Shown here piece by piece: positions 4,643 through 52,317 of a stretch of DNA of 64,000 nt. Origin of the DNA: Candidatus Woesearchaeota archaeon (GTDB lineage: Archaea > Nanobdellota > Nanobdellia > Pacearchaeales > GW2011-AR1); the NCBI GenBank assembly GCA_964406515.1, contig CAYORV010000001.1, forward strand, positions 33,956-97,955, read 5' to 3'. Every line of letters begins with the position of its first letter. Positions within the stretch are counted from its first letter, which is position 1. The notes beneath the pieces were generated by a model. The model was not told where the DNA came from, searched no databases, and saw only the letters and a program-made list of their open reading frames with translations. Both the position numbers and the translations under genes were made by a program.

Positions 4643-5671
4643 TTATAAATCTATGAACGTCTCTTTATTTGTTCCTGGACAATCTTTACAAAGTGGGATT
4701 TCTTTTTTATTTTTTAGAATCATCTTCCTAAAATTTGTATATTTTTGATTATTCCAAATTTCTTTGATTGGACTTTTGAATGCATTTCCAAAAACAAAAA
4801 GATTGTTCATATCAAAACAACATGGGACTACTGTTCCATCCCAATTTATTACTATTTCTTCCCAAATAAAATCACACCAATTTTTTACCTTAACTTTTGA
4901 TTTCACTCCCTCTTCTTGGATTTCATATCTTGAGTATTTTTTGTTTGTTGGAATGTATTTTTTTATATCCTTTTTAGAAAAATAATCCATAATCCCCACT
5001 GTTTTGAAAACCAATTCATCTATGCCTATTTTTTTTGCAAGAAATTTTATTTTGTTAATCTCATGTTCATTGTGTTTCATAATTATAAATTGTAACTTGA
5101 TATAAGGAGATTTTTTATTCAGTCTCTTTTTTTCTTCTACTAAAAGTTTTATTGATTCTATAATCTTGTTAAAATCCCCTCCTTTTCTATATTTTTTGTA
5201 AGTTTCTTCAGAGGCCCCATCTAAGGAGATTATTAATTCGTCTAAACCAGATTTGATTAAGTTCTTTGCTATTTCATCATTTAAAAAATAACTATTGGTA
5301 CTTAGGTTGGTGAATATTTTCTTTTCTTTAGCATAGGCAATCATTTTGAAAATATCTTTATTCAATAAAGGCTCACCCCAATTCCACATTCTTAGATGGA
5401 TTACATAATCTGCCATTTCATCAATTATTTTCTTAAAATTTGGGAAGGTTAGGAAACCTTTTGCTCGTTTCACTAAACCAGCCCCCGTTGGACACAAAGG
5501 ACATTTAAGATTACAGATGTTTGTTGGTTCAATCATTATTGTCGTGGGATATCCTTTGATTTTAGAAAGTTTTAGATATTTTGAAACATTTATCATAATA
5601 AGATTCATTAATCTTTTCTTACTAAAAAGGACGTATTTTAAAAAATAATTTATTTTTCTTTTTAATTTCAT
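4643..5671 (-). CDS. Radical SAM enzyme with C-terminal SPASM/twitch Cys cluster
   Basis: 'EPTNICNLKCPLCP' CxxxCxxC motif. C-terminal 'CDFIWEEIVINWDGTVVPCCFD...CKDCPG' cysteine cluster. Confidence 0.75.
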   Translation of the reverse strand: MKLKRKINYFLKYVLFSKKRLMNLIMINVSKYLKLSKIKGYPTTIMIEPTNICNLKCPLCPTGAGLVKRAKGFLTFPNFKKIIDEMADYVIHLRMWNWGEPLLNKDIFKMIAYAKEKKIFTNLSTNSYFLNDEIAKNLIKSGLDELIISLDGASEETYKKYRKGGDFNKIIESIKLLVEEKKRLNKKSPYIKLQFIIMKHNEHEINKIKFLAKKIGIDELVFKTVGIMDYFSKKDIKKYIPTNKKYSRYEIQEEGVKSKVKVKNWCDFIWEEIVINWDGTVVPCCFDMNNLFVFGNAFKSPIKEIWNNQKYTNFRKMILKNKKEIPLCKDCPGTNKETFIDL

Positions 5672-6588
5672 TTTTTATAATCCAAGGTTTTTGTTGATTC
5701 TGAACGAGACCATTGTGCAACATATGTGGTTTTTTTAATTTTTATTTCATAAAATGTTTTTAACCAAACATATAATCTTGGAGGATATAATAAAAAAGTC
5801 CAATAAAACTCCTTTATAGTCTTAGGGAAAGAAAGTGCAAAAGAAAATCCGTAGAAAATTTCATTGATTAAGGACTTTTGTTTAATTTCTTTTGAGGTAA
5901 CATACTTGTTCATAGCTTCATGAGATTTTGCAGAACGAACTTTTTGTTTTACCCAATCAGAAAAATTTCGTGGGTACATCACATATACTTTTGCATTTGG
6001 TTGGTAGATATTTTTATAACCTTTTTGTATAATCAAATAAGGGATTATTGCATCTTCTGCAACATCATTTGGGATTTCTTTCAAAAGATTATTTTTCATT
6101 GCTAAAAGGTTCGCACATTGTTCTACAAATTTTCCCTTGTGAAATCGCATTTCCCTTAATTTATGGGCTGCGTTTGTTAGAAGGTGTGCCCAAAATCCAA
6201 AAATATTGTCTCGATTATTTTGTGGACAAGGTTTTCCACCAACACATCCAACAGAGGGGTCTTCAAATTCTTTCAAAATTATTTTAATAGCATCTTTTTC
6301 AACAAATTTATTTCCATCTGTCCAAATTAAAATTTCCCCTTTAGCTAATTTAAGAATTTTGTTCATTAATTTATTTTTGTCAGGGTCGTCTTGTTTAACA
6401 TAACGAATTATAGAAGGATATCTCTTTTTGTAATCCATTATTACTTTTTTTGTGGGTTCATCAGGACAAGCCACGATAAGTTCAAATTTTTCATTGAAAT
6501 CCTCTTGATTAAGAAGTCGTTTAATACACTCGTTTGTTGATTTTGGGTCGTTATATGCTGTAACAATTAGTGAAATCATTTCAGTCAT
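5668..6588 (-). CDS. Family 2 glycosyltransferase
   Basis: 'ISLIVTAYNDP' GT2 N-terminus, 'ILIWTDGNKF' DxD-like region. Paralog of 12545..13462. 4-nt overlap with the downstream radical SAM gene. Confidence 0.7.
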   Translation of the reverse strand: MTEMISLIVTAYNDPKSTNECIKRLLNQEDFNEKFELIVACPDEPTKKVIMDYKKRYPSIIRYVKQDDPDKNKLMNKILKLAKGEILIWTDGNKFVEKDAIKIILKEFEDPSVGCVGGKPCPQNNRDNIFGFWAHLLTNAAHKLREMRFHKGKFVEQCANLLAMKNNLLKEIPNDVAEDAIIPYLIIQKGYKNIYQPNAKVYVMYPRNFSDWVKQKVRSAKSHEAMNKYVTSKEIKQKSLINEIFYGFSFALSFPKTIKEFYWTFLLYPPRLYVWLKTFYEIKIKKTTYVAQWSRSESTKTLDYKK

Positions 6589-6640
6589 AATCAGACTGTT
6601 TTTAAAAGGTTTATGAAGGTTAAACAGATGATATAGAGTT

Positions 6641-6662
6641 TATCTACAAAATTCTTATAAAG
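6641..6662 (+). promoter_or_regulatory. Archaeal-type TATA-like element (cTTATAAAg) ~22 bp upstream of the ATG at 6684
   Basis: Weaker member of the recurrent upstream motif family. Confidence 0.35.
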
Positions 6663-6683
6663 TGAGGTCTATAAATAATAAGA

Positions 6684-7430
6684 ATGAGAGCAATTTTACT
6701 TTCTGCTGGAAGGGGGGAAAGATTAAAACCCTTAACAGATACTATGCCAAAAGTCATGATTCCAATAAATGGTAAGCCACTTCTTCAATATTGGATAGAA
6801 TTTTTGAAGAAATATGGAATTGAAGAGATAGCAATTAATGTATGGTACCTGGGCGAACAAATAATGAATTATTTTGGAGATGGTTCTAAATTTGGTGTAA
6901 AGATAAAATACTCAAAAGAAGAAGCTCTTCTTGGAACAGCTACGCCCATTAAAAGGATTGAAGAATTATATCCTGGGTTTTGTTCAGAAGATAAATTTTT
7001 GGTAATTTATGCAGATAATTTAACAGATATGGATTTGAAAAAAGTTTTTGAATTTCATGAATTACATAAACCTCTTGTTACATTAACTTTGCATAAACAT
7101 GATGAACCTTGGACAAGAGGGATTGTTAGCACAACAGAAGAAGGTAAAGTTACAGGTTTTATAGAAAAACCACAAAAAGAAGATATTTTATCTGGAAAAT
7201 ATCCTGGAGAATCTGCATCATGTGTTTATATTCTTGAGCCAGGCGTATTAAAATATTTGAAAGATGAGAAAGAAGACCTTGGGACAGATTTGTTCCCTCG
7301 ATTATTGGAAAATAATTGCGAATTATATGCTTTTAATCCTCATGCATGTGTAATGGATACTGGAACCTCAGAAAGATATAAAAGAGCAAAAAAAGAAGTT
7401 GCAGAAAATCCTGAGAGGTTTAATTTCTAA
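6684..7430 (+). CDS. Sugar-1-phosphate nucleotidyltransferase, HddC-like (D-glycero-alpha-D-manno-heptose-1-P guanylyltransferase candidate)
   Basis: 'MRAILLSAGRGERLKPLT...PKVMIPINGKPLL' G-x-G-x-R-L pyrophosphorylase motif. ~250 aa and adjacent to HddA/GmhA homologs. Confidence 0.65.
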   Translation: MRAILLSAGRGERLKPLTDTMPKVMIPINGKPLLQYWIEFLKKYGIEEIAINVWYLGEQIMNYFGDGSKFGVKIKYSKEEALLGTATPIKRIEELYPGFCSEDKFLVIYADNLTDMDLKKVFEFHELHKPLVTLTLHKHDEPWTRGIVSTTEEGKVTGFIEKPQKEDILSGKYPGESASCVYILEPGVLKYLKDEKEDLGTDLFPRLLENNCELYAFNPHACVMDTGTSERYKRAKKEVAENPERFNF

Positions 7431-7450
7431 CTATAAAATATATATTTTCT

Positions 7451-7470
7451 CTTCATAATCCTTAAAAAAG
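7451..7470 (+). promoter_or_regulatory. BRE/TATA-like promoter motif (cttcataatcCTTAAAAAAG) upstream of 7493
   Basis: Matches the recurrent motif. ~23 bp to the ATG. Confidence 0.45.
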
Positions 7471-7492
7471 AATTATATTTTATAAAAAAGAG

Positions 7493-9217
7493 ATGATAAT
7501 ATCAAGAACACCTTACAGAGTTGATTTGATTGGAGATGGCACAGATATCGGAAGTTTTTGTAATAAAGAAAGAGGGTGTATTGTTAATGCAACTATTCAA
7601 AAATATATTTATGTTATTGTTCATCCTTCAAAAGATAAAAAGATTAATGTTAGTTGCGGAGGAGAAACAGAAATAGTTGGTAATGTAGAAGAATTAAAAA
7701 ATGGCCGTGTGAAGGAAGCGATGAAAATGGTGGGGGTTTTTGGAGGAATTGAGATTCATTCTATTGCAGATGCGCAAACAGGGACAGGTCTTGGAGGTTC
7801 AAGTTCTTTTACTGTGGGAGTGTTAAATGCTCTCCATAAATACAAGGGAGAAGAAGTAACCCAAGAAGTATTAGCAAAAGAAGCATCTCAAGTAGAAATT
7901 GACATTTTAAAAGAACCAATAGGAAGGCAGGACCAATATGCTGCTGCTTATGGGGGATTTAATCAAATGGAATTTGTTAATGAAAAAGTAGTTGTTTCAA
8001 AATTAATAAATAATTTAGAATTAAAAAAAGAGGTAGAGGAAAAAATGATGATGTTTTCTCTTGGTGAAGATAGGTCGGCCACTTCAATTCTCTCAGAACA
8101 AAATAAAGAAATGCAAACAAATCAGAGAGTTTTTGATGCTATGAGGGATATGAGGAACCTTGCAGATTATTCTTCTTTTGAAATTAAAAGTGGGGAAATT
8201 GAAAATTTTGGGAAATTTTTGCAAAAAAATTGGAATCTTAAAAAAGAACTTATTCAGAATATAAATAATCCTTCTATTGAAGAATATTATAATCTTGCAA
8301 TAGAAAATGGGGCAGAAGGAGCAAAACTCTCTGGTGCAGGGGGAAGTGGTTTTCTTTTAGTTTATGCTCCCTTAGAAAAACAGGAGAGGATAAGATATGC
8401 TCTTCATGATTTAGAAGAACACAAATTTGAACTTGAAGAAAAAGGAAGTTCAATTATTTATTCTAAAGAAGATGATGGAGAACAATTAACTTTAAATAAA
8501 AATTCCGAGAAAGAAATTAATAATATGGTAAAAGGTATAGCATTTGATTTGGAAGGGACTGTAGTTAATTTAGACCCCCTTCATATTTCTGCGCACTTAG
8601 AAGTTTTTAGAAGGGTTGGATTAAATTTATCTAGTGAAGAGGCTATGGAAAAAATTGAACATTTTATTGGAGGCCCAGATAGTGCAATAATGGAAGATGT
8701 TTACAATTTAGGTTATACTAATATGTCAATTGAAGAAATGGTAAAGTTAGATAAACAATTGTATGAAGAACAACTTAATGTGGCTGAAATTTCTCCTCGT
8801 CCAGGATTTTTAGAATTTCTTGAAAAAATAAAAGAATTGGAAATCCCCTATTCTATAGGTTCATTAACTGCAACTGAACAAGCAGATTTCATCTTAGAAA
8901 AATCTGGGCTCTATAATCATTTTAAGAAAGATAAAATTGTTTTAAAAGAAAATGTGAAAAATCTTAAACCCTCTCCGGATGTTTATTTAGAGACCGCGAG
9001 AAAGATGGGAATTCCCCCAGAAAATCAATTAGTATTTGAAGATTCCCACAATGGAGTAAAAGCTGCATTGGCTGCAGGATCAAAAGTAATTGGGATGCCA
9101 GTTTATCAAACTAAATTTATAATCAATAGATTAAATAAAACCGGAGCACATAAAGTTCTTTTAGGATGGGAAGGGGTGAATATTATTCAACTCTCTGAGG
9201 AAATTTTTAAGCATTAA
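7493..9217 (+). CDS. Bifunctional GHMP sugar kinase (HddA-like heptose-7-P kinase) fused to a HAD-superfamily phosphatase (GmhB-like role)
   Basis: N-term 'MIISRTPYRVDLIGDGTD' and 'GTGLGGSSSFTVG' (GHMP motifs). C-term 'IAFDLEGTVVN' (HAD DxD/E motif I) and 'VFEDSHNG' (HAD motif III/IV). Confidence 0.7.
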   Translation: MIISRTPYRVDLIGDGTDIGSFCNKERGCIVNATIQKYIYVIVHPSKDKKINVSCGGETEIVGNVEELKNGRVKEAMKMVGVFGGIEIHSIADAQTGTGLGGSSSFTVGVLNALHKYKGEEVTQEVLAKEASQVEIDILKEPIGRQDQYAAAYGGFNQMEFVNEKVVVSKLINNLELKKEVEEKMMMFSLGEDRSATSILSEQNKEMQTNQRVFDAMRDMRNLADYSSFEIKSGEIENFGKFLQKNWNLKKELIQNINNPSIEEYYNLAIENGAEGAKLSGAGGSGFLLVYAPLEKQERIRYALHDLEEHKFELEEKGSSIIYSKEDDGEQLTLNKNSEKEINNMVKGIAFDLEGTVVNLDPLHISAHLEVFRRVGLNLSSEEAMEKIEHFIGGPDSAIMEDVYNLGYTNMSIEEMVKLDKQLYEEQLNVAEISPRPGFLEFLEKIKELEIPYSIGSLTATEQADFILEKSGLYNHFKKDKIVLKENVKNLKPSPDVYLETARKMGIPPENQLVFEDSHNGVKAALAAGSKVIGMPVYQTKFIINRLNKTGAHKVLLGWEGVNIIQLSEEIFKH

Positions 9218-9240
9218 TAGTAAAAGTAATGTATATAGTA

Positions 9241-9261
9241 TTCCTCAACAATCTTTAAAAG
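9241..9261 (+). promoter_or_regulatory. BRE/TATA-like promoter motif (ttcctcaacaatcTTTAAAAG)
   Basis: ~27-34 bp upstream of the ATG at 9288. Near-identical copies at 11977 and 42262. Confidence 0.55.
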
Positions 9262-9287
9262 AAAAGAGTATCTAAATAATAAAAAGG

Positions 9288-10259
9288 ATGATAATTTCAA
9301 AAACACCATTGAGGATAAATTTTTCTGGAGGAGCGACAGACTTAAAAGATTATAGGCAGGTTCATGGAGGGGCAGTTCTTAATGTTTCTATTAATCAGTA
9401 TGCATATATTATTGCAAAAGAAAGAGTTGATAATGACCTCTGGTTAAAATATTCAAAAAATGAAATTGTGAAAAATGTAGACCAGGTACAAAATGAAGTA
9501 TGGAAAGAATGCTTGATGGCTACAGGAGTCACTAAAGGGGCAGAGATCGTTGCAATGGCAGATATTCCTAAAGGATTTGGACTTGGAGGATCAAGTGCCT
9601 TTACAGTTGGTTCATTAAATGCCCTTCATGCTTTAACTGGAAAACATAAATCTGGAAAAGAGCTTGCTGAAGAAGCTGTAGAAATTGGGAAAAAGATATC
9701 AAAGGCATATGGGTCTCAAGATTATTATGCTTCATCTCATGGAGGCCTTAATCTTATTGAATTTGGAAAAGAAGAGGGGGTTTTTGTTAATCCAATAATC
9801 ATTCCTCCTTCATTGAAGAAAAGTCTTTCTCAGAATTTGTTATTATTTGACATGAGAACGCAAAAGGCAATAGATCCCTTATCAAATTTAAATACAGGAA
9901 TGCAAACAAATGAAGGAACACTTCATAAAATTAAAGAGATTGTTTATGCTACTAGAGATTCATTGCATTCTTTAGATTTAAGGAGGTTTGGAGAATTATT
10001 ACATGAAAATTGGGAGTATAAAAAGACAGTTCTAAAGAATATCTCTAATTCAGAAATTGATAGATATTATAATCTAGCGAGAGAGGCTGGGGCGATAGGT
10101 GGAAAAATGTGTTGCAGTCCAGAATCTGGAGGATTCTTATTAGTTTATGGGGAACCAGAAAAACAAGACCAAATTAGAGCAGCATTAAATCTTAAGGAAG
10201 TTCCATTTGAATTTGAATCTGGACAATCAGGAAGTAAAATTATTTATGTTGGAGAGTAA
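9288..10259 (+). CDS. GHMP kinase, second HddA-like paralog (no phosphatase domain)
   Basis: 'MIISKTPLRINFSGGATD', 'GFGLGGSSAFTVGS' and 'GGKMCCSPESGGFLLVYG' motifs. Paralogous to the N-terminal half of 7493..9217. Confidence 0.7.
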   Translation: MIISKTPLRINFSGGATDLKDYRQVHGGAVLNVSINQYAYIIAKERVDNDLWLKYSKNEIVKNVDQVQNEVWKECLMATGVTKGAEIVAMADIPKGFGLGGSSAFTVGSLNALHALTGKHKSGKELAEEAVEIGKKISKAYGSQDYYASSHGGLNLIEFGKEEGVFVNPIIIPPSLKKSLSQNLLLFDMRTQKAIDPLSNLNTGMQTNEGTLHKIKEIVYATRDSLHSLDLRRFGELLHENWEYKKTVLKNISNSEIDRYYNLAREAGAIGGKMCCSPESGGFLLVYGEPEKQDQIRAALNLKEVPFEFESGQSGSKIIYVGE

Positions 10260-11965: not shown

Positions 11966-11976
11966 AATATGTATTC

Positions 11977-11997
11977 TTCCTCAACAATATTTAAAAC
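11977..11997 (+). promoter_or_regulatory. BRE/TATA-like promoter motif (ttcctcaacaatATTTAAAAC)
   Basis: ~34 bp upstream of the ATG at 12030. Confidence 0.5.
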
Positions 11998-12029
11998 AAT
12001 TAGATTTTTAAAGAAAATAATAACATAAA

Positions 12030-36540: not shown

Positions 36541-36560
36541 TATCTTCAAAATAAAACTTC

Positions 36561-44893: not shown

Positions 44894-47083
44894 ATGGAAG
44901 TATCTCCTGCAGAAATAATCGATAGAATGAGCATTGTTCGATTAAAAATAGAACGAATAGGAAATCCTGAATTAAATTTAGAGATGACTGCGCTGAAACA
45001 AGCACTTGAAGAATTTAGAGAGGGAGAGATTCATATTGAAGATGGGTGGCTTGATGAACTTTATGATATAAATTCAAAAGAATGGGATTTATTAGATAAG
45101 ATGAATGAAGAGAAAAACAAAGGGAATTATGAGGAGGTTGGAAAATTATACTTGGAAACAGAGATGTTGAATAAAAAGAGAAGCAATGTTAAAAATAAAA
45201 TTGTCGAAAAAACAGAAAAGGGATTTAGGGAAATTAAAAAAGGTCATATTTCTGATATGGATAATAAGGAACTAGAAGAAGAAAATAAAAAAGTTCTTCA
45301 AGAAGAGTGTGTAAAAGTTTCTCTTGAAACAGCTAGGGGGGGAATTAAAGAATCCTGTGTGCTTCCAGAACATTTAAGTCAATATGAGGTGGATATTAGT
45401 CCGGAGACTAAAGCCGTGCTTATTACTCCAGACATGGGAAAAGTGAGTAATAAAGATGAAATCATAATTCCAAATCTTCATAATGGTCTCTTTCGGATTC
45501 ATGCATTTCTTCATGAAAAAAATATCTCCTCAGTTACATTGGATACTAGCCTTGATAATGTAAAAAGAGCGTGGGAGTTAATTGGTCGGCACAAGCCCCC
45601 TTTTATTGCATTTAGTCCTTATTATGATAGCATACGTAATGATTTAAACAACGTTGTAAAGGTTCTTGAACTTTCTCCCAATTCTATTATTGTAGCTGGA
45701 GGATTTGAAGCATCACTTAACCCTCAATGGGAAACTCTCGGGGGATTGATAGATATTCTTGTCAAAGGCGAAGGAGAATGGGCTTTAACAGAATTGATTC
45801 AAAGGCATCAAAAGTTTTTTCAGGATAATCCTTATGCAGACAAATTAAAATTTTTAGAGTATTTAAAAAAAGACTTTGAAATTCATCCAATTCCAGGAGT
45901 TTCTATTTTGAGTGCAGATGGCACAATACAAACATCTCCTGTAAAAAAGAGAATTGACCCTAATTTGTATCAGGAAATAAATCTCAATGCATTTCAAAAG
46001 TATCTATCTCTTTCACCAATCGAAAAATATTGGAAGATTAATCGGTGGTTATTTGGGGGTAAAAAGGATGCGTATTTTCGTTTTGTTTCTAGTGATCACT
46101 GCCCCTATAAGTGTGTTTTTTGCCAAAGTTCTGTTTATTATTCAAAAATTATGGGGAAAAAATTTTCTCCTGTTCGTTATATCAATCCTGAAAATATATT
46201 AAAAATAATCAAAGCTGTTTCAGACCAACTTCCATTTATTAATGGTATGTATATAGATGATGAGAATTTTATAATCAATCGTGAGCGTGCAATTGAAGCA
46301 TTAAATTTGATCATTGATGGACGGGAAACTGGAGAAATACGAAAGGACATAGTATTTCAGTGTAGAACAAGAACAGATAATATTGATTCGGAGATTTGCA
46401 GACTCTTGAAACAAGCAGGTTTTGAAACAGTATCTGTAGGATCCGAAAGTTATTCTTCTAAGGAATTGGAATATTTAAATAAAAATACTTCTCCCGAACA
46501 AAATTTGAAAGCAATTAAAATTATACTGGATAGTGGACTCAATGTAGCGGAGAATTATATTTTGTTTACTCCTGCCACAACTGCAGATACATTTTATGAT
46601 AATGCTTTGAGAATTTGTCAGAATATTGGGGAATTGGGTGTTGATGGAACTGCTACATTATTTTTAACTCCTCTTCCCGGGACTAAATTGTGGGGGGATG
46701 GAAATTATGAAATAGTGAGAGATTTTCCTTACAAACAAGAATTATTTAAAAATAAAGTGATGTTTTATAATCCAAAAACAGGATATGATTATATCGGAGA
46801 AGAAATTAAAGTTCCGGGAACAAATAGTATTCTTCCTCACCCTGAAATTATGTTGGTAAATAATCCTTTAATGCGTAAAGTTTCCTTGGAATTTCTCCAG
46901 CATCTCCCAAAAACTATTAATTATTTTAGAGAACTTGCAGGTGGAGAACATTCTCTTTCTAGAGAATTTATTACCTTGGCCAATCTCTCGGCAGCTTCAG
47001 AAATCTTATATGGATTAACAAAAGAACAACGTTGGAAGGATTTAAACAATAGAATTGAAGAGATTGTGAGAAAGAAATCCTAA
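44894..47083 (+). CDS. Cobalamin-binding radical SAM enzyme with a ~250-aa N-terminal extension
   Basis: 'SSDHCPYKCVFCQSS'. B12-binding segment 'VLELSPNSIIVAGGFEAS'. N-terminal charged / coiled-coil-like region has no known motif. Confidence 0.65.
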   Translation: MEVSPAEIIDRMSIVRLKIERIGNPELNLEMTALKQALEEFREGEIHIEDGWLDELYDINSKEWDLLDKMNEEKNKGNYEEVGKLYLETEMLNKKRSNVKNKIVEKTEKGFREIKKGHISDMDNKELEEENKKVLQEECVKVSLETARGGIKESCVLPEHLSQYEVDISPETKAVLITPDMGKVSNKDEIIIPNLHNGLFRIHAFLHEKNISSVTLDTSLDNVKRAWELIGRHKPPFIAFSPYYDSIRNDLNNVVKVLELSPNSIIVAGGFEASLNPQWETLGGLIDILVKGEGEWALTELIQRHQKFFQDNPYADKLKFLEYLKKDFEIHPIPGVSILSADGTIQTSPVKKRIDPNLYQEINLNAFQKYLSLSPIEKYWKINRWLFGGKKDAYFRFVSSDHCPYKCVFCQSSVYYSKIMGKKFSPVRYINPENILKIIKAVSDQLPFINGMYIDDENFIINRERAIEALNLIIDGRETGEIRKDIVFQCRTRTDNIDSEICRLLKQAGFETVSVGSESYSSKELEYLNKNTSPEQNLKAIKIILDSGLNVAENYILFTPATTADTFYDNALRICQNIGELGVDGTATLFLTPLPGTKLWGDGNYEIVRDFPYKQELFKNKVMFYNPKTGYDYIGEEIKVPGTNSILPHPEIMLVNNPLMRKVSLEFLQHLPKTINYFRELAGGEHSLSREFITLANLSAASEILYGLTKEQRWKDLNNRIEEIVRKKS

Positions 47084-47388
47084 ATATACCCTCTATCTCC
47101 AAGATGTTTTTTTAACTTCGCCTCTTCCCGCTCAGTATACGGATCCACTTCTTCTTCCTCGGCGTCTATTTTTTGTATTTGATTTCCTATAGCAGTTGCA
47201 AATTCTGCCTCTTCATCTTTAGTATATATTTCCTTTCTTTCATCTTCTTCATTTTCAAAAACTACTTGTTCTAAAACAAAAGTGATATATTGTTGAATAG
47301 ATTCAAAACTTGTTTCTTTTGTTTTCTTTTCTAATTTTTGTTTTAATTCCTTAGAAATTGAAAGATTTATTTTATTTGCCATCTTCAC
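47080..47388 (-). CDS. Small acidic protein with an RHH (CopG/Arc)-like N-terminus (family member 1 of 3)
   Basis: 'INLSISKELKQKLEKK...SIQQYITFVLEQ' beta-alpha-alpha pattern. Acidic tail with two 'YTxEEA' repeats, ending '...LKKHLGDRGYI'. 4-nt overlap with the upstream sulfatase-family gene. Confidence 0.4.
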   Translation of the reverse strand: MKMANKINLSISKELKQKLEKKTKETSFESIQQYITFVLEQVVFENEEDERKEIYTKDEEAEFATAIGNQIQKIDAEEEEVDPYTEREEAKLKKHLGDRGYI

Positions 47389-48815
47389 AATAATTTATTT
47401 TGCTTTATAAGAATTTGTATTCTTCTTTTTTCATTTAGTGTTTTCAGATCTCTTAAGGTTTTGTCTAATTTTGATTTCATTTCTCTTGTAATCTCTTTAT
47501 TTTTTTCAGCTAAATTTATATTTTCGTCCGGATCTTTTTCTAAATCATATAATGCGGTAATTGGTCCGTGCGTTGTATTACAGAGACAACACACAGAATT
47601 CTCTTTTTCAGGAGATTCCATATATTTATATTTTTTTGTTCTAATCGCTCTTCTTTTTATTCCTGCTGCATTTCCCTCTAAAATGATAGATTCTCTAATC
47701 TCTTCATCTTTTCCAAATAAGAGTGGAAATAAACTTTTACCATCAAATAATAAGGGGTCATATTTTATGCCGATTAAATCTAAAACTGTTGGAGCAAGAT
47801 CTTTTGATTGAATTAATGCTTCAACTTTTTTATTTTTTGGAATTTCTCCCCCAAAAATTATTAAGGGTATGCTAAAATTTGCATCGTATACTCCAGTATT
47901 ACTCAAACACAACACATGCTCACAAGGATCCATTCCATGATCTGCAAACAAGAAAACTATTGTGTCTTTTAGCAAGTTTTCATTTTTTAAGGTGTCAATT
48001 ATTTTTTCTATTAAAAAATCATCATAAAAAATGGCTGTATCATATTTTGCTATTAATCCTTCAAAAGTTTCATCAGACTTAAAACTATTCTTAGTCATCT
48101 CTATCGCTTTTTTATTATAACCTTCTGCAGAGTTTAATGCTTCAAATATCTTTTTACCTTCTTTAGTTGAAGTAAATTTATTATTCAACCAATGAGGAAA
48201 CATGTATGGGCCATGAGTCTCTTGATAATGTAAACAAAGAAAAAAATTATTTTCTTTATTTTGTTTTATTATCTCTATTGCATTGTTTGTGATTATTTCT
48301 CCATTATTATTGAATCGAATTTTGCTTTCCAATTTTTTTGGAACAATGTGGGTGTTGTGCAAAATAGATTTAAATAAATTGTACATCAATGGTTTTTTTT
48401 TGATAGATCTAATTAAACCCCATTTTTTTGATATGTCTAAATTATTTTGCTCAAAATAATAATCAAACCCCATTTTTTGCCAACCCCACAATTTTCTTGG
48501 AAAATGTGTTTTATAACCATTTTTTTGAAGTATTTCTGATAAGAAAACCCCTCCTGTCTCGAAAAAATAATCCATTTCCCTTTGTGTTGGATAATGCATA
48601 AAATCTTGTAATAAAAGATGTCTTCCACTGAGAATTGAGAAAAAAGATTTATGGGTGCCATTAGATACTGAGAAAAAATTTTTGAATAATACTCCTTGAC
48701 TTGCATAAGAATCTATATTTGGAGAAGTATTTCTTTCATATCCATAACAACCTAAGTTTTTTGGTCTTAAACCATCTATTGATAAAAAGATTATGTTTGG
48801 TTTTTTATTTTCCAT
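47385..48815 (-). CDS. Sulfatase-family (PF00884-type, AP superfamily) enzyme with Gly-Thr at the FGly position (Thr-nucleophile phosphotransferase/hydrolase type)
   Basis: 'PNIIFLSIDGLRPKNLGCYG...SVSNGTHKSFFSILSGRH' aligns with the sulfatase 'C-T-P-S-R' block but reads G-T-H-K-S. 'FADHGM'. Start taken at ATG 48815 (MENKKPN, matches the paralog); the track start at 48830 is a TTG. Confidence 0.65.
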   Translation of the reverse strand: MENKKPNIIFLSIDGLRPKNLGCYGYERNTSPNIDSYASQGVLFKNFFSVSNGTHKSFFSILSGRHLLLQDFMHYPTQREMDYFFETGGVFLSEILQKNGYKTHFPRKLWGWQKMGFDYYFEQNNLDISKKWGLIRSIKKKPLMYNLFKSILHNTHIVPKKLESKIRFNNNGEIITNNAIEIIKQNKENNFFLCLHYQETHGPYMFPHWLNNKFTSTKEGKKIFEALNSAEGYNKKAIEMTKNSFKSDETFEGLIAKYDTAIFYDDFLIEKIIDTLKNENLLKDTIVFLFADHGMDPCEHVLCLSNTGVYDANFSIPLIIFGGEIPKNKKVEALIQSKDLAPTVLDLIGIKYDPLLFDGKSLFPLLFGKDEEIRESIILEGNAAGIKRRAIRTKKYKYMESPEKENSVCCLCNTTHGPITALYDLEKDPDENINLAEKNKEITREMKSKLDKTLRDLKTLNEKRRIQILIKQNKLL

Positions 48816-48816
48816 T

Positions 48817-49104
48817 TCACATATATCCAAGATCTTCTAAACTTTCCTTCAAATCTGCTTCTTCCTCTCCGCTGTACCCCTTTCTCTTCTTATCTTCTTC
48901 ATCCCACCGAACATTTCCCTTAATGCCTGCTTCCTCTTCTTTTGTATATCCTTTTCTTTCTGTTTCCCTTCCAGAAAACATCTGTTCTAAAATAAAAAGC
49001 AAGTAATCTTGAATTGATTTAAAATTTGTTTGTTTTATCCTCTCGTCTAATTTTTGTTTTAATTCTTCGGGGATTGAAATAATTATTTCAGCTGTCATCT
49101 TCAC
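48817..49104 (-). CDS. Small acidic RHH-like protein (family member 2)
   Basis: 'IIISIPEELKQKLDERIKQTNFKSIQDYLLFILEQ'. 'GYTKEEEA...GYSGEEEADLKESLEDLGYM' repeats. Confidence 0.4.
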   Translation of the reverse strand: MKMTAEIIISIPEELKQKLDERIKQTNFKSIQDYLLFILEQMFSGRETERKGYTKEEEAGIKGNVRWDEEDKKRKGYSGEEEADLKESLEDLGYM

Positions 49105-50531
49105 AATAATTTATTTTTCTTTATAAGAATTTGTATTCTTCTTTTTTCATTTAATTTTTTCAAATCTCCTAAAGTTTTATCTAATTTTGATTTCATTTCT
49201 CTTGTAACTTTTTTATTTTTTTCAGCTAAATTTATATTTTCGTCCGGATCTTTTTCTAAATCATATAATGCGGTAATTGGTCCGTGCGTTGTATTACAGA
49301 TTCCACATACAGTGTGCTCTTTTTCAGGGGATTCCATATATTTATATTTTTTTGTTCTAATTGCTCTTCTTTTTATTCCTGCATTTTGTTCTTCCATAAT
49401 GATAGAATCTCTAATCTCTTTATCCCGACCAAATAAAAGCGGGAATAAACTTTTACCATCAAATGATAAAGAATCGTACTTTATTCCAATTAAATCAAGA
49501 ACTGTTGGAGCAAGATCTTCTAACTGGGTCAGTGCTTTAACATTTTTGTTTTGGGGAATTCCACTGCCAAAAATTATTAGGGGGATATTAAAAGAGACAT
49601 CATACACCCCCTCATTGTTGAAATAAACTTCATGTTCTCCAAGGCTTATCCCATGATCAGCGAATAAAAAAATGATAGTATCCTTTAGTAAATTCTCTTT
49701 TTTCAAAGTCTCAATTATTCTTCCTATCAATAAATCATCATAAAAAATGGCTGTATCATATTTTGTGGTTAATCCTTCGATGGTCTCATCAAATTTCCAA
49801 CAACCCCTTGAAAAATCTATATCTTTTTTATTATACCCTTCCATAGAATTTAATACCTCAAAGATTTTTTTACCCCCCGAGGGGATAGTGAATTTTTTAC
49901 TAAGAGCATAGGGAAACATATGGGGAACATGAGCATCATCATAATGTAACCATAAAAAAAAGTTGTTGTTTTTATTTTGTTTTATTATTTCTATTGCTTC
50001 ATTTGTCATTCTTTCTCCATTATTATTAAATCTTATTTTGCTTTCCAACCTTTTTGGGGTAAGATGAGTATTATGCAAAATAAATTTGAAGAAATTGTAT
50101 ATTAATGGTTTTTTTTGGAGAGATTTTATTAAATTCCATTTTTTTGATGCTTCTAAACTATCTTGTTCAAAAAAATAATCAAATCCTTTTTTTTGCCAAC
50201 CGAATAATTTTTCTAAAAAATGTGTTTTATAACCATGTTTTTGGAGTATTTCTGATAAGAGAACCCCCCCTGTATCAAAAAAAGAATTCATTTCTCTTTT
50301 AGAGGCATAATTCCCAAAATCTCTTGCTAAAATATGCCTTCCTCCGAGAATAGAGGAGAAAGATTTGTGAGTAACTGAGTAATACGAAAAAAAATTTTCG
50401 AATAATACTCCTTGGCTTGCATAAGAATCTATATTTGGGGAAGTATCTCTTTTATATCCATAACAACCAAGATTCCTTGGCCTTAAACCATCTACAGATA
50501 AAAAAATTATATTTGGTTTTTTATTTTCCAT
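49101..50531 (-). CDS. Sulfatase-family enzyme, tandem paralog of 47385..48815
   Basis: 'MENKKPNIIFLSVDGLRPRNLGCYG...' ~70% aa identity to the paralog, including long identical nucleotide runs. Confidence 0.65.
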   Translation of the reverse strand: MENKKPNIIFLSVDGLRPRNLGCYGYKRDTSPNIDSYASQGVLFENFFSYYSVTHKSFSSILGGRHILARDFGNYASKREMNSFFDTGGVLLSEILQKHGYKTHFLEKLFGWQKKGFDYFFEQDSLEASKKWNLIKSLQKKPLIYNFFKFILHNTHLTPKRLESKIRFNNNGERMTNEAIEIIKQNKNNNFFLWLHYDDAHVPHMFPYALSKKFTIPSGGKKIFEVLNSMEGYNKKDIDFSRGCWKFDETIEGLTTKYDTAIFYDDLLIGRIIETLKKENLLKDTIIFLFADHGISLGEHEVYFNNEGVYDVSFNIPLIIFGSGIPQNKNVKALTQLEDLAPTVLDLIGIKYDSLSFDGKSLFPLLFGRDKEIRDSIIMEEQNAGIKRRAIRTKKYKYMESPEKEHTVCGICNTTHGPITALYDLEKDPDENINLAEKNKKVTREMKSKLDKTLGDLKKLNEKRRIQILIKKNKLL

Positions 50532-50616
50532 TCATCTTAATATTTTAATCTATTTTTAAATTTTATGGACCTGGAATAGTAGAAATGTTTTAATACCTTA
50601 ATTTCATTTGTGAAGC

Positions 50617-50835
50617 ATGGATAAAAAAAGAGAATATGGAACAGTATCATTACCCTTGCCACTAATAACTTCTATTAAAGATAAGATTGAAGGAACAGGA
50701 ATACATTCTGTTTCTGCTTATATTTGTTTTATTCTTAGACAGATTCTTTCTTCTCCAGAAGAGAGTGATACTCCTTTAGACCGAAAAACAGAAGAAGAGA
50801 TTAAAAAGAGATTAAAAAAATTAGGCTATATCTAA
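50617..50835 (+). CDS. Small RHH-like protein (family member 3, single C-terminal repeat)
   Basis: 'VSAYICFILRQILSSPEES...KTEEEIKKRLKKLGYI' shares the helix and the C-terminal 'EEE.xK.L.xLGYI' with the other two. Confidence 0.35.
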   Translation: MDKKREYGTVSLPLPLITSIKDKIEGTGIHSVSAYICFILRQILSSPEESDTPLDRKTEEEIKKRLKKLGYI

Positions 50836-50898
50836 TAAAATTTATTACCGAGGAATACTAAATAAGATTTAAAAAGTAATTATATATAATTATATACA

Positions 50899-52317
50899 AT
50901 GGCAGAGGTTTCAAAAAAGAACGTGAGTAAAATAATGTTTCTAACTCCTAGATATACTTTGTTTAAAAATGATGTTAGAAGATGTGTGACTCCTCTTGGA
51001 TTAGCTTATTTAGGAGCATACTTGGAAAGAGAAGGTTATGAAGTAAAAATTCTTGATGTTGCTAATGAAGGGTATAATAATATTAAACCCAATTGTGAGT
51101 TTATTACTTTTGGTTTAAATGATGAAGAAATTAAAGAAAAAATCAAAGAATTTCAACCAGATATTGTTGGAGTTTCTTGTATATTTTCGACACAAGCAGA
51201 GAATGCAAAAGAGATTCTTAAGCTTGTTAAAGAAATTGATTCTGAAATTTTTACGATGATTGGGGGTTCTCATCCAACTTATGATTTATTAAATATTTTA
51301 GATAAAAATTATGTTGATTTTGTGGTGATGGGAGAAGGAGAATTGCCTGTTTCCCAATTACTGCTTGCATTAAATGAAGGAAAAGACCTATCTAAAATTG
51401 GGGGTCTTGCATACAAGTCAAACGGAAATAAAATAATAAACACCAACAAACAATATGTTGAAAACTTAGATGAATTAGCCTTTCCTGCGAGACATCTCTT
51501 AAATATGGATATGTATTTTAAGATTAATGCTCCACAAAACCCATATCCACAGGGAAAAAGGGTTGCTCAAATAATTACATCAAGGGGTTGCTCAGCGAAA
51601 TGTGTTTTTTGTACAACTACTAATTTTTGGGGGAATCGCCATAGAGGAAGAAGTGCTGAAAAAGTAATTGAAGAAATAAAGGAAATGAAGGAAAAATATA
51701 ATATAGATGAAATTCAAATCACAGATGATAATTTTACATTGAACAAAGAAAGAGCTATGCAAATTTTAGAAGGTATTAAGAATTTGAATTTATATTGGTG
51801 TGCTCCCCAAGGGATTGCTGTTTGGGCCCTAGACGAAGAATTATTGGAAAAGATGAAGGAAAGTGGTTGTTATCAATTGACTTTTGCTGTTGAAAGTGGT
51901 AATCAAAAAGTGCTGAATGAAATTGTGAAAAAGCCATTAAATCTTCAAAAAGTTAAACCTCTTGTCAAAAAAGCCAAGGAACTTGGAATTAAAGTTCATT
52001 CTTTTGCTATTTGTGGCTTACCTGGAGAAACAATAGAAAATATGCAAGAAACCTATGATTTTGTAAAAAATTGTAATTTTGATAGTGCTTCTTTTTTTGT
52101 TGCTACTCCCCTAATTGGTTCTGAATTATTGGAAACTTGTAAAAGAGAAGGTTGCTTAAGAAAAGAAATGACTTGTAAGGACCAATTGTTTAAGATTGGG
52201 AATATCTCAACTAAAGAATTTACTGCTAAACAAGTTCAGGAAATTTGTGCTAAGTTTAACAAGGAATATAATAAAAATGATACCAGGGAGAAAAAATTTG
52301 AAGATGAAAAATATTGA
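50899..52317 (+). CDS. Cobalamin-binding radical SAM enzyme (Fom3/PhpK-like position in a phosphonate operon)
   Basis: 'KIMFLTPRY...' B12-binding N-terminus. '[15 protein letters not shown]'. Overlaps the cytidylyltransferase-PEP mutase fusion gene by 14 nt. Confidence 0.7.

Follow-up and report, generated by a model that had tools for sequence, protein, structure and literature searches.

The stretch of DNA analysed here (the window, 64,000 nt) carries nine genes for radical SAM (rSAM) enzymes, which raises the question of what such a collection of radical chemistry is used for. The initial annotation had counted five cobalamin-binding and four SPASM/twitch-type enzymes, which will be referred to as B12_1 to B12_5 and SP_1 to SP_4. 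All nine open reading frames were present at the positions given there, matched Pfam Radical_SAM (PF04055) with 39-104 bits at a cutoff of 29.5 bits and contained one canonical copy of the CxxxCxxC motif. The subdivision held as well. An N-terminal B12-binding domain (PF02310, cutoff 32.1 bits) was found in five of the nine proteins, four exceeding the cutoff and B12_4 (44894-47083) lying just below it, and in the other four the SPASM matches (PF13186) of 71, 24, 51 and 35 bits all exceeded the cutoff of 21.5 bits. A full SPASM domain contains seven cysteines; these four proteins have 5-6 C-terminal cysteines each, and SPASM/twitch-type is therefore the correct label. The cysteine triad, whose loss from orthologs had been named as evidence against these assignments, was retained in every ortholog collected (B12_1, 11/11; B12_2, 11/11; B12_5, 6/6; SP_1, 44/44; SP_2, 3/3; SP_3, 32/32). 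Pairwise identity among the nine proteins is at most 32%, and none of them reached an NCBIfam equivalog cutoff. Cobalamin binding of the B12-type enzymes is predicted from their domains; as known for AprD4-type enzymes, a B12-type domain need not mean methylation. With radical SAM genes accounting for 9 of the 57 genes in the window, a binomial test yielded P = 6e-9 to 5e-5 for an assumed background of 1-3% radical SAM genes per genome; the clustering is functional and not a matter of chance. No tenth radical SAM gene was found within the window, and two further B12-type genes in the 10 kb upstream of it on the source contig bring the total to 11 in ~75 kb.

The island is part of the chromosome and is bounded on the source contig by AglB (STT3/AglB with the WWDYG motif) and an initiating GlcNAc-1-P-transferase-type enzyme (PF00953, GPT) on the upstream side, where the two additional B12-type genes are also located, and by housekeeping genes (SecDF, RNA polymerase and ribosomal genes) on the downstream side. 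It most likely represents an AglB-linked N-glycosylation locus, a point absent from the initial annotation. Adjacency to AglB is no proof that every module feeds the N-glycan, and N-glycans are the presumed destination of the products. Glycan genes in the window comprise two GT2, three GT4 and one GT4 remnant, a GT9, a GT-C, a Wzx-type polysaccharide flippase (60342..61895, minus strand; Pfam Polysacc_synt and Polysacc_synt_3; 15 hydrophobic segments), a true GDP-mannose 4,6-dehydratase (GMD), a DegT aminotransferase and heptose-pathway-like genes; a GFO/IDH/MocA dehydrogenase and, after the phosphonate cassette, an MFS transporter are also present. Syntenic contigs and named homologs belong to Woesearchaeota, Pacearchaeota or Nanoarchaeota, and the host is a Woese-/Pacearchaeota-like member of the Nanoarchaeota. 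The gene arrangement, likewise not recognized before, is lineage-wide and not special to this genome. We consider it likely that the window forms the central part of a ~75-kb chromosomal locus for cell-surface glycans, most likely N-glycans, in a small-genome (DPANN) archaeon, with the radical SAM enzymes as partners of glycosyltransferases (GTs) and B12_5 as part of a phosphonate branch.

The proposed role of the radical SAM enzymes in a sugar or glycan pathway was supported, as they abut or overlap GT genes, the pairings are kept in relatives and the closest solved relatives act on carbohydrates. SP_1 (4643..5671, minus strand; Pfam Radical_SAM 78 bits, SPASM 71 bits), which combines the radical SAM motif CNLKCPLC at residue 53 with a BtrN-type twitch domain, overlaps by 4 nt with the family-2 glycosyltransferase gene GT2_a (5668..6588, minus strand; Pfam Glyco_tranf_2_3 and Glycos_transf_2). 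The pairing also exists in DPANN loci L012-L015, in the Latescibacterota locus L019 (as GT2-rSAM-GT2) and in the Omnitrophota locus L044. A GT-C (PMT_2) membrane glycosyltransferase with eight hydrophobic segments (3028..4602, minus strand; Pfam PMT_2 44.6 bits) lies 40 bp downstream of SP_1, and this synteny is found again in L012, L015, L016 and L044. The best PDB match of SP_1 was BtrN (4m7t, E=7e-15), with which its twitch cysteines align (PCC/PC, LCKDC/LCKNC), peptide maturases ranking below; 44/44 orthologs retain C53/57/60 and C266/284/328/331.

SP_3 (17990..19129, minus strand; Pfam) is a highly conserved, Nanoarchaeota-restricted radical SAM/SPASM-like protein detected in 47 metagenome loci with mostly 64-81% identity. 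Its best 120 database matches were at least 70% identical, the named ones all being Nanoarchaeota or 'archaeon', its cysteines were kept in 32/32 orthologs, and DesII was the best, weak, PDB match (E=4e-4). The SPASM-like SP_2 (17020..18018, minus strand; Pfam Radical_SAM 77 bits, SPASM 23.9 bits; CNSRCKTC at residue 35) adjoins SP_3 in only 3/21 relatives. Convergent with both is a fusion of a sugar-1-phosphate nucleotidyltransferase with a GT4 (15135..17015, plus strand; Pfam NTP_transferase and Glycos_transf_1), which 15/16 loci having enough flank also carry downstream of SP_3. Upstream of SP_3, B12_2 orthologs (56-70% identity) were encountered in 11/24 loci and any B12-type gene in 16/24, with the glycosyltransferase GT4_b within 5 kb in 13/16. 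SP_4 (26934..28016, minus strand; Pfam; CNHHCAFC), a SPASM-like protein with weak viperin and MoaA-type matches, has orthologs adjoining GT4_b-B12_2 in two related loci (L067 and L071), and its annotated start at 28016 (maximal ORF, 28079) is backed by an ortholog length of 359 aa. Directly upstream of SP_4 lies a class I/II aminotransferase (28051..29235, minus strand; Pfam Aminotran_1_2 232 bits) of amino-acid rather than sugar type (NCBIfam aspartate-aminotransferase-like, 350 bits, below cutoff), which was not found in the other loci compared.

Among the cobalamin-type enzymes, B12_1 (13484..15022, minus strand; Pfam B12-binding 50.5 bits, Radical_SAM 65.9 bits; CPYGCDYC at residue 201) is followed after 21 bp by GT2_b (12545..13462, minus strand; Pfam), a family-2 glycosyltransferase 51.5% identical to GT2_a. 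Orthologs of B12_1 with 71-79% identity occur in many DPANN loci; the pair is kept in L012 and L067, and L009 contains a paralogous pair. B12_2 (19231..20784, plus strand; Pfam; CPGRCTYC) is divergent from SP_3 and separated by 1 nt from GT4_b (20786..21958, plus strand; Pfam Glycos_transf_1 124 bits). Ortholog lengths of 509-517 aa agree with its annotated start at 19231 (maximal ORF, 19138). B12_3 (25482..26909, plus strand; Pfam 104 and 71 bits) is located in a variable part of the island; it matched the NCBIfam models Sden_1168 (207 bits) and HpnJ (190 bits) below cutoff, and no ortholog reaching 35% identity was found in the loci sampled. AprD4 was the best PDB match of both B12_2 and B12_3 (E=2e-23 for B12_3) and the second best of B12_5; the PDB search gave no match for B12_1 and no solved relative for B12_4. 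The latter, a 729-aa protein (44894..47083, plus strand; Pfam Radical_SAM 55 bits, B12-binding 29.5 bits, below cutoff), represents a small family confined to Pace- and Nanoarchaeota, with ~20 close homologs that start near residue 135. Leading into it are the genes for GMD, the DegT-type sugar aminotransferase and a GDP-sugar-hydrolase-like NUDIX protein (42304..44893, plus strand; GMD TIGR01472 516 bits, cutoff 415; DegT 332 bits), with gaps of 0, -11 and 0 nt, and in L114 and L116 its orthologs are flanked by GT2 and GT4.

Overall, SP_1, B12_1 and B12_2 overlap a neighbouring GT gene or lie within 40 nt of it, and the pairings GT2–SP_1–GT-C, B12_1–GT2, B12_2–GT4 and SP_3/SP_2 with the nucleotidyltransferase–GT4 fusion are found again in dozens of DPANN loci as well as in some bacteria. 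Related DPANN loci hold 2-5 radical SAM genes per ~20 kb and share a conserved core (GT4<-B12 / SP_3 / <-NTPtr-GT4 / B12_1 ... GT2 ... GT-C). One relative even encodes a natural fusion of a B12-type radical SAM enzyme with a GT2, followed by a polysaccharide deacetylase gene. From these gene identities, motifs, synteny, conservation and the fusion we infer the substrates and reaction types. The radical SAM enzymes would act as tailoring partners of GTs, each co-transcribed with or adjacent to one and performing oxygen-independent radical chemistry on the sugar handled by it, probably while this sugar is part of a lipid-linked intermediate facing the cytoplasm. SP_1 may oxidize a sugar hydroxyl to a ketone in a BtrN-like manner between the GT2 and GT-C steps, and B12_1 to B12_4 may C-methylate or rearrange sugar residues, comparable to GenK, MoeK5 and HpnJ. 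The C-methyl, deoxy or epimerised sugars proposed in the initial annotation and products of ring contraction or oxidation are equally possible predictions.

The fifth cobalamin-type enzyme is part of a Fom-like phosphonate cassette that had been overlooked. B12_5 (50899..52317, plus strand; Pfam 94 and 93 bits) overlaps by 41 nt with the gene for a Fom1-type cytidylyltransferase-PEP mutase fusion (52277..53638, plus strand; TIGR02320 398 bits, cutoff 319.55) carrying the EDKxxxxxNS and HHGH motifs; Fom1 is an example of such a PF01467-Ppm fusion (PMC6697681). Phosphonopyruvate decarboxylase (53635..54756, plus strand; TIGR03297 448 bits, cutoff 312.5) and an Fe-ADH (54753..55856, plus strand; Pfam Fe-ADH) follow, the latter a predicted FomC/PhpC-like phosphonoacetaldehyde reductase (best NCBIfam model phosphonate-associated Fe-ADH, 167 bits, below the 424 cutoff). 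Together with B12_5 these enzymes resemble Fom1/Fom2/FomC plus Fom3, the likeness to Fom3 coming from the cassette context. Fom1/Fom2/FomC produce 2-HEP-CMP, which Fom3 methylates at C2 (PMC8158854), and in the class-B network Fom3 groups with MoeK5 and HpnJ (PMC9204698). The closest curated model of B12_5 is the NCBIfam Sden_1168 family (353 bits, cutoff 575), labelled there as a P-methyltransferase with native function not established. Homologs with 50-69% identity adjoin the same cassette in L007, L009, L117 and L118, that is, in 5/5 cases including this window, which makes Fom3-like modification of CMP-2-hydroxyethylphosphonate the most likely role of B12_5; the context of a 45% identical bacterial homolog is not phosphonate. 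The front end would thus be of the fosfomycin type and lead to CMP-2-hydroxyethylphosphonate, which B12_5 would modify, most likely by C-methylation to CMP-2-hydroxypropylphosphonate, before transfer onto the glycan. Candidate CMP-phosphonate transferases or hydrolases are two paralogous alkaline-phosphatase-superfamily (Phosphodiest) proteins with 60% identity and a stand-alone cytidylyltransferase (55856..59139, plus strand; Pfam), the last of which accompanies the cassette also in L007, L009 and L117. In the relatives, the cassette has LicD and Capsule_synth, or CDP-OH_P_transf, among its neighbours. In the window itself, neither LicD nor a CDP-alcohol transferase was found.

The initial annotation had noted the lack of an obvious peptide substrate and nevertheless offered hidden ones, such as small acidic proteins. 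The former is in line with a coding fraction of 96.7% and a largest intergenic gap of 180 bp; the latter was not supported. That the SPASM/twitch enzymes mature RiPP-like precursors, or sulfatase-like proteins via formylglycine in the manner of anSME, appears very improbable. SP_2 matches peptide maturases including PapB, StsB and WgkB with 69-76 bits, and the island contains two tandem pairs of a sulfatase-like and a small acidic protein plus a third small acidic protein (47080..50835). Nevertheless, no maturase model comes near its cutoff (PapB 76 vs 340, anSME 45 vs 349), Pfam detected no PqqD/RRE domain, only 34-68 residues precede the cluster motif, and the SPASM genes overlap with or directly border on the adjacent genes, leaving no room for adjoining precursor genes. 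The sulfatase-like proteins lack the formylglycine motif C/S-x-P-x-R, their site reading GTHKS or VTHKS, and SP_1 is closer to BtrN than to any peptide maturase. The small acidic proteins, three paralogs of 72-102 aa with a weak ribbon-helix-helix fold match, have no conserved cysteine and are kept beside sulfatase-like, not SPASM, genes in at least five other loci (L043, L076, L091, L101, L104); they were rejected as substrates. These findings favour unusual sugar chemistry over hidden peptide products, with B12_5 in a fosfomycin-like phosphonate branch.

Two further explanations were weighed. Some or all radical SAM enzymes might act on membrane lipids or head groups instead of protein-linked glycans, for example by Mss/Tes/Grs-like tail chemistry or by HpnI/HpnK/HpnJ-like conversion of a lipid-bound amino sugar to a cyclitol; the GT2s would then make glycolipids. 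Such activity would fit a symbiont remodelling host-acquired lipids. The best NCBIfam model of B12_1 is 'lipid biosynthesis B12-binding/radical SAM', with HpnJ and HpnR models matching too, GT2_a matches the lipid-GT type Glyco_transf_21, an LPG_synthase_TM gene lies in the upstream flank just before the window, and related loci L009, L114, L116 and L117 encode CDP-alcohol phosphatidyltransferases. Trios of GT2, B12-type radical SAM enzyme and polysaccharide deacetylase, upstream of the window and in L115, parallel HpnI/K/J (HpnJ chemistry, PMC9204698), and Mss matches have been reported in Woesearchaeia (PMC11868695). We nevertheless regard a lipid target as unlikely: the matches to lipid models all fall well short of their cutoffs (rSAM_ladder_B12 102 vs 360, Tes 43-48 vs 450), isoprenoid or lipid-tail genes are absent from the window, and AglB, GPT, Wzx, GT-C and many nucleotide-sugar genes are present in the island. 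The same AglB, GPT, flippase and GT-C genes in or flanking the island argue against use of all or part of the island for secreted small molecules, an aminoglycoside-like pseudo-oligosaccharide and/or a free, MFS-exported phosphonate related to fosfomycin precursors, which we consider rather improbable. An aminoglycoside-like set is indeed present (BtrN-like, AprD4-like and GenK-type radical SAM enzymes, GFO/IDH/MocA dehydrogenase, aminotransferases and GT4s), and the Fom1/2/C/3-like cassette is followed by the MFS transporter and nucleotide-pyrophosphatase-type enzymes that could free the phosphonate as FomD does. However, Pfam found no HppE-type epoxidase, FomD-type (DUF402) hydrolase or 2-deoxy-scyllo-inosose synthase, LicD and Capsule_synth adjoin the cassette in relatives, and the core genes keep 65-80% identity in many DPANN lineages, a degree of conservation that secondary metabolism does not usually show.

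The cell-surface glycan locus that we favour contains two additional sugar modules, both on the plus strand. An NDP-heptose-type pathway (6684..12593; Pfam; best NCBIfam matches HddA, GmhA and rfaE_dom_II, all below cutoff) comprises a nucleotidyltransferase, an HddA-like kinase-HAD fusion, a second HddA-like kinase, a GmhA-like isomerase, an SDR epimerase and an RfaE-domain-II-like adenylyltransferase. A branched-sugar module (29369..39240; Pfam and NCBIfam) encodes an SDR, an acetolactate-synthase-like ThDP enzyme, a methyltransferase, a split E1 alpha / E1 beta-SDR fusion, a TylC3-type C-methyltransferase fused to GDP-mannose dehydratase and a cytidylyltransferase. Within the 180-bp gap, a 29-aa ORF looks, on reading the sequence, like the remaining C-terminal end of a disrupted GT4 gene.

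The nine radical SAM genes that the initial annotation had claimed were all recovered in an ORF listing of the window, and a tenth was not found there. In Pfam searches all nine proteins scored above the gathering threshold of Radical_SAM (PF04055; 39-104 bits, cutoff 29.5), and each contains exactly one CxxxCxxC motif. An N-terminal B12-binding domain (PF02310, cutoff 32.1 bits) was detected as claimed in the five B12-type proteins, with 50-93 bits in B12_1 (13484..15022, minus strand), B12_2 (19231..20784, plus strand), B12_3 (25482..26909, plus strand) and B12_5 (50899..52317, plus strand) and with 29.5 bits, marginally under the cutoff, in the 729-aa B12_4 (44894..47083, plus strand). Four B12-type enzymes thus appear to have class B architecture, and cobalamin binding is predicted; AprD4-type relatives show that the B12 domain alone is poor ground for inferring cobalamin use. 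The four genes described as SPASM/twitch-type, SP_1 (4643..5671), SP_2 (17020..18018), SP_3 (17990..19129) and SP_4 (26934..28016), all on the minus strand, likewise each gave a SPASM match (PF13186) above the cutoff of 21.5. A full SPASM domain with two auxiliary clusters was taken to require the seven-cysteine C-terminal motif Cx9-15Gx4C...Cx2Cx5Cx3C...C, which was found in none of the four; their C-terminal domains hold 5, 5, 6 and 6 cysteines, spaced differently, and are more accurately termed twitch or partial SPASM.

Loss of the cysteine triads in orthologs had been named as the observation that would speak against these assignments. For the six enzymes with orthologs found (B12_1, B12_2, B12_5, SP_1, SP_2 and SP_3), the triads are kept in every ortholog, as are the auxiliary cysteines where checked (SP_1, 44/44; SP_3, 32/32). 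The maximal ORFs of B12_2 and SP_4 begin at 19138 and 28079, and ortholog lengths favour the shorter starts annotated initially (19231 and 28016). Pairwise identity among the nine proteins does not exceed 32%, which rules out recent tandem duplication as their origin, and none of them reached a curated NCBIfam equivalog cutoff. With 9 of 57 genes, the density of radical SAM enzymes is far above a genomic background that we assume to be 1-3%.

The window (30% G+C, 96.7% coding) is almost wholly devoted to glycan biosynthesis, and a tRNA scan found no tRNA gene in it. It encodes two paralogous GT2 glycosyltransferases, GT4 enzymes, an NTPtr-GT4 fusion, a GT9 heptosyltransferase-like protein, a GT-C enzyme (PMT_2) and a Wzx flippase, together with a GDP-mannose 4,6-dehydratase (516 bits, cutoff 415), a DegT aminotransferase and an NDP-heptose-like pathway. 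The flanks were read on a 213-kb metagenomic contig (JGI 3300025697 Ga0208769_1000002) that matches the window exactly. On this contig, 8-10 kb upstream of the window, lie the genes for AglB/STT3, with the WWDYG motif, and for a PF00953 initiating transferase (GPT) (L119:1-3153, L119 being the upstream flank); the island begins at the oligosaccharyltransferase AglB. The same upstream 10 kb encode a B12-type radical SAM protein with a CX4CX2C motif, an acetyltransferase, a polysaccharide deacetylase, a second B12-type radical SAM protein and a GT2. The two radical SAM genes (L119:3192-4652 and L119:6853-8292) are located about 1.5-6.6 kb before window position 1. One of them carries the CX4CX2C motif as CWWGRCKFC, which is kept in a Pacearchaeota ortholog and is spaced as has been reported for OxsB, a ring-contracting enzyme; its companion belongs to a trio with a GT2 and a polysaccharide deacetylase. 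Downstream of the window, one more GT2 gene is followed by genes for SecDF, RNA-polymerase subunits and archaeal ribosomal proteins (L120:13292-20108, in the downstream flank). Since it starts with AglB and GPT and has housekeeping genes at its far end, we take the island to be part of the chromosome; it measures about 75 kb and contains 11 radical SAM genes. The clustering of STT3 with WWDYG, GPT, glycosyltransferases and a flippase corresponds to an archaeal N-glycosylation (agl) locus, to which we assign the island by gene content, and its products are predicted to be N-linked. Named homologs and syntenic contigs derive from Woesearchaeota, Pacearchaeota or Nanoarchaeota. At least five cobalamin-dependent enzymes are predicted in the window, and seven with the flank; no gene for cobalamin transport or salvage was detected in the window, and organisms of this type are commonly regarded as incapable of cobalamin synthesis.

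The radical SAM genes are lineage-wide partners of glycosyltransferases. In the window, GT2_a (5668..6588, minus strand) overlaps SP_1 by 4 nt, with the GT-C gene (3028..4602, minus strand) 40 bp further on; B12_1 lies 21 bp from GT2_b (12545..13462, minus strand), and B12_2 is 1 nt from GT4_b (20786..21958, plus strand). SP_3 and SP_2 are convergent with the NTPtr-GT4 fusion gene (15135..17015, plus strand), and an operon of GMD, DegT and NUDIX genes ends in B12_4. The arrangement was followed in 99 loci obtained by scanning a genome collection with SP_1 and metagenomes with SP_3. SP_3 was found in 47 loci, mostly with 64-81% identity, and among named database hits in Nanoarchaeota only. Its surroundings recur in the order GT4 and a B12-type radical SAM gene in reverse orientation, SP_3, a reversed NTPtr-GT4 gene, then B12_1, GT2 and GT-C. 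Among the 16 loci with enough flank, an NTPtr-GT4 gene is present near SP_3 in 15 and a GT4 gene in 13; some B12-type radical SAM gene precedes SP_3 in 16 of 24 loci. The order GHMP-GT2-SP_1-GT-C is kept in four DPANN loci (L012-L015). More distant SP_1 homologs (41-44% identity) have GT2 genes on their flanks in Latescibacterota and adjoin PMT_2-GT2 and additional radical SAM genes in a MAG of Omnitrophota. The SP_1 family spans phyla, always beside a GT2. The small B12_4 family is confined to Pace- and Nanoarchaeota, with members located between a GT2 and a GT4 gene. An unassigned metagenomic contig encodes a natural fusion of B12-binding, radical SAM and GT2 domains (L115:8001-11243, 781 aa), with a polysaccharide deacetylase gene after it and a B12-type radical SAM gene, a GT4 and an rSAM/SPASM gene before it. 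This fusion is a distant relative, and the same trio occurs as separate genes just upstream of the window. Related DPANN loci contain two to five radical SAM genes per ~20 kb. The block at 21997-26909 (GFO, two unknowns/PHP, a GT4 remnant and B12_3) is without counterpart in the sampled relatives and represents the variable part of the island.

GT2_a and GT2_b are paralogs with 51.5% identity, and their partners differ in class, being the twitch-type SP_1 and the B12-type B12_1, respectively. The first ~130 residues of B12_4 (44894-45290) are missing in all orthologs but one, the others starting near residue 135; the N-terminus is either a lineage-specific extension or a gene fusion without Pfam match, or the true start is an internal Met.

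In a PDB sequence search, the best solved relative of SP_1 was BtrN (E=7e-15), a twitch-domain radical SAM dehydrogenase of butirosin biosynthesis. BtrN-type dehydrogenases are defined by oxidising a secondary alcohol of a carbohydrate or cyclitol by two electrons, an activity that SP_1 may share. Residues 274-337 of SP_1 align with the BtrN twitch domain (38 bits), matching PCC with PC and LCKDC with LCKNC, and it is these auxiliary-cluster cysteines that are kept in the 44 orthologs; scores with PqqE, SkfB and other peptide maturases were much lower. SP_1 can be aligned to BtrN in both core and twitch domain, and both occur in carbohydrate contexts, but overall similarity amounts to 58 bits only, SP_1 has 342 aa compared to ~250-270 aa for BtrN, and its partners are GT2 and GT-C instead of aminocyclitol enzymes. 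SP_3 matched DesII best, weakly (E=4e-4). B12_2 and B12_3 both had AprD4 as their best PDB match, and for B12_5 it ranked second; TokK and CysS came next. PDB sequence searches with B12_1 and B12_4 gave no match. For B12_3 and B12_5 the top NCBIfam models were Sden_1168 and HpnJ, both below cutoff: the Sden_1168 family P-methyltransferase model NF038361 requires 575 bits and gave 353 for B12_5 and 207 for B12_3, and the HpnJ model gave 187 bits for B12_5. A published class-B network, whose authors describe SD1168 as having no known function, places Fom3, MoeK5 and HpnJ, which ring-contracts a lipid-bound glucosamine, in one cluster (PMC9204698). GenK/GenD1, MoeK5 and HpnJ (with HpnI/HpnK), class-B enzymes whose substrates are sugars that have already been transferred, resemble the island enzymes in their B12-binding plus radical SAM architecture, in glycosyltransferase-adjacent genes and in recurring trios of GT2, radical SAM and deacetylase; however, the island enzymes score under all family cutoffs and belong to a primary cell-surface glycan locus, whereas the former act in antibiotic or hopanoid pathways. 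The relatives favour putative sugar substrates, on which methylation or rearrangement may take place. Tetraether synthase (Tes) identity was ruled out for the SPASM enzymes (43-48 bits versus 450).

B12_5 is part of a phosphonate cassette, overlapping by 41 nt the gene of a cytidylyltransferase-PEP mutase (CyTase-Ppm) fusion (52277..53638), which is followed by Ppd (53635..54756) and Fe-ADH (54753..55856), all on the plus strand. The fusion protein scored 398 bits with TIGR02320 (cutoff 319.55) and contains [10 protein letters not shown] and HHGH motifs; this score, an EDKxxxxxNS motif and the adjoining Ppd identify a PEP mutase. Ppd, a phosphonopyruvate decarboxylase, scored 448 bits (cutoff 312.5), and the best match of Fe-ADH, the putative reductase of phosphonoacetaldehyde, is a phosphonate-associated Fe-ADH. 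The Fom3-type context of Fom1-type CyTase-Ppm, Ppd and Fe-ADH was present in 5/5 contexts; homologs of B12_5 with 69, 67, 63 and 50% identity adjoin the same cassette in four other genomes, where the neighbours are LicD and Capsule_synth or a CDP-alcohol transferase. A bacterial homolog with 45% identity is without phosphonate context. Fusion of PF01467 to Ppm represents the Fom1 type (PMC6697681), and Fom1, Fom2 and FomC make 2-HEP-CMP, which is C2-methylated by the class-B enzyme Fom3 (PMC8158854). As FomD- or HppE-type genes were not found in the window, we infer that the CMP-activated product, by analogy most likely CMP-2-hydroxypropylphosphonate, would go onto the glycan. Two Phosphodiest paralogs directly downstream are candidate transferases or, alternatively, CMP-ester hydrolases. 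The four-enzyme logic and the grouping of the genes are those of the early fosfomycin pathway of Streptomyces (Fom1, Fom2, FomC, Fom3). The cassette differs in being without FomD hydrolase and Fom4/HppE epoxidase, in its location inside an archaeal glycan locus and in the extra stand-alone cytidylyltransferase and alkaline-phosphatase-superfamily genes; moreover, B12_5 is likened to Fom3 (UniProt Q56184) by gene context, its closest curated model being Sden_1168, below cutoff. It also resembles Pnt tailoring of surface glycans via CMP-activated phosphonates, in which nucleotidyl activation is fused to Ppm among glycan genes (Rice et al. 2019, PMC6697681), and relatives of the island contain LicD-like phosphotransferases. 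In contrast to the 2-aminoethylphosphonate of Pnt, the head group predicted here from Fe-ADH and radical SAM is hydroxyethyl- or hydroxypropylphosphonate, and the host is a DPANN archaeon. A 2022 inventory contained only 12 archaeal ppm neighbourhoods.

Hidden peptide substrates, which the initial annotation had considered, found no support, and peptide maturation is unlikely. Intergenic gaps do not exceed 180 bp; the 29-aa ORF in the widest one resembles, in our reading, the C-terminal tail of a broken GT4 gene (24927-25301), and neither an adjoining precursor gene nor an RRE/PqqD-like domain was detected in the window. A RiPP system was rejected in view of the lack of room for a precursor, the undetected RRE domain and the synteny of the small acidic proteins with sulfatase-like genes. 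The three small acidic proteins are conserved in an N-terminal segment and have L-G-Y in common at the C-terminus; they have no conserved Cys and come after sulfatase-like genes in five other loci. Pfam and NCBIfam searches with them gave nothing significant (RHH_1, E=0.24), and neither did their profile give a meaningful match in the PDB. An AlphaFold model built from the three paralogs (pLDDT 71, three helices) had the ribbon-helix-helix proteins NikR and FitA as top Foldseek matches, only at E~6, and an RHH-like regulator is our guess from this model. The sulfatase-like and small acidic pair, which is kept in other DPANN loci, is tandemly duplicated at 47080-50531 (75% and 45% identity). 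Both sulfatase-like proteins are soluble and have GTHKS or VTHKS in place of the formylglycine motif C/S-x-P-x-R, so that threonine may be the nucleophile and no anSME is needed; the missing motif and a best anSME score of 45 bits versus 349 rule out an anSME/sulfatase system.

Some modules may have a role in lipids or lipid head groups, a reading backed by lipid-type NCBIfam matches, the CDP-alcohol transferases of related loci, HpnI/K/J-like trios and 'Mss' hits that have been published for Woesearchaeia. That the product is a secreted small molecule is less likely in view of AglB, GPT, Wzx and GT-C and the high conservation. The island is real and is explained at the pathway level as a glycan locus. 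As a specific model, we tentatively suggest, while regarding it as rather doubtful in its entirety, that N-glycans or a lipid-linked surface glycan of Woese-/Pacearchaeota-type DPANN are built by modular glycosyltransferase plus radical SAM units and are phosphonate-capped. These units would act on dolichol-linked sugars, with a BtrN-like anaerobic oxidation or epimerisation between the GT2 and the GT-C step and with cobalamin-dependent C-methylation or HpnJ-like ring contraction by trios of GT2, deacetylase and B12-type radical SAM enzyme; the glycan would be capped with 2-hydroxypropylphosphonate from the Fom-like cassette.

The components are already known, namely agl clusters, sugar tailoring by class-B and twitch radical SAM enzymes, Fom-type phosphonate synthesis and Pnt-type tailoring. 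Archaeal agl clusters likewise group AglB (STT3, WWDYG), GPT, glycosyltransferases, flippase and nucleotide-sugar genes, but the present cluster differs by its 11 radical SAM genes and the phosphonate cassette. The combination, a DPANN-conserved AglB-linked island of 11 glycosyltransferase-coupled radical SAM genes with a Fom3-like branch, appears to be undescribed. Within an incomplete coverage of the literature, nothing was found on DPANN phosphonates or DPANN radical SAM-glycosyltransferase islands, and radical SAM enzymes and AglB were joined only in unrelated work on the bacterium Pectobacterium; due to this coverage, the silence is absence of evidence only. Outside antibiotic and hopanoid pathways, radical SAM tailoring of sugars is hardly known; the island suggests that a large group of uncultured archaea uses it throughout the lineage as a conserved element in the primary assembly of surface glycans. 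If this holds, new sugar structures and an archaeal phosphonoglycan are to be expected, with SP_3, SP_1 and the natural B12-rSAM::GT2 fusions as uncharacterised enzyme families to study, and Fosfomycin-type Fom1/2/C/3 logic would be extended to surface decoration. Small-genome symbionts would then spend about 7% of a ~1-Mb genome, by our estimate, on a surface coat requiring iron-sulfur and cobalamin cofactors, with a bearing on host dependence and on marine and lacustrine phosphonate sources. Under the specific model, N-glycosylation that depends on radical SAM enzymes would be described for the first time, and the cobalamin for the coat would be scavenged.

The GT4 remnant at 24927-25427, within the variable block 21997-26909, consists of a 124-aa ORF with 48% identity to the C-terminal half of GT4_b, with a separate 29-aa ORF nearby that resembles the GT4 tail, and is probably a decayed gene. 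The gene at 36561-38771 joins a TylC3-type NDP-hexose C-methyltransferase (Methyltransf_13/14) to a second GDP-mannose-4,6-dehydratase-like domain, which implies that a GDP-4-keto-6-deoxy sugar receives a C-methyl branch without radical chemistry; in two relatives (L116, L118), the fusion partner of the methyltransferase is a sugar isomerase. An acetolactate-synthase-like ThDP enzyme with a split E1 (30179-34872), comprising a 204-aa alpha fragment and a beta-SDR epimerase/dehydratase fusion, hints that a two-carbon branch is added to a keto-sugar, presumably comparable to yersiniose-type chemistry. At 7493-10259, two HddA-like GHMP kinases that are 39% identical are encoded in tandem, and the first has a HAD phosphatase fused to it; a third GHMP kinase forms a fusion with a nucleotidyltransferase (62004-63809).
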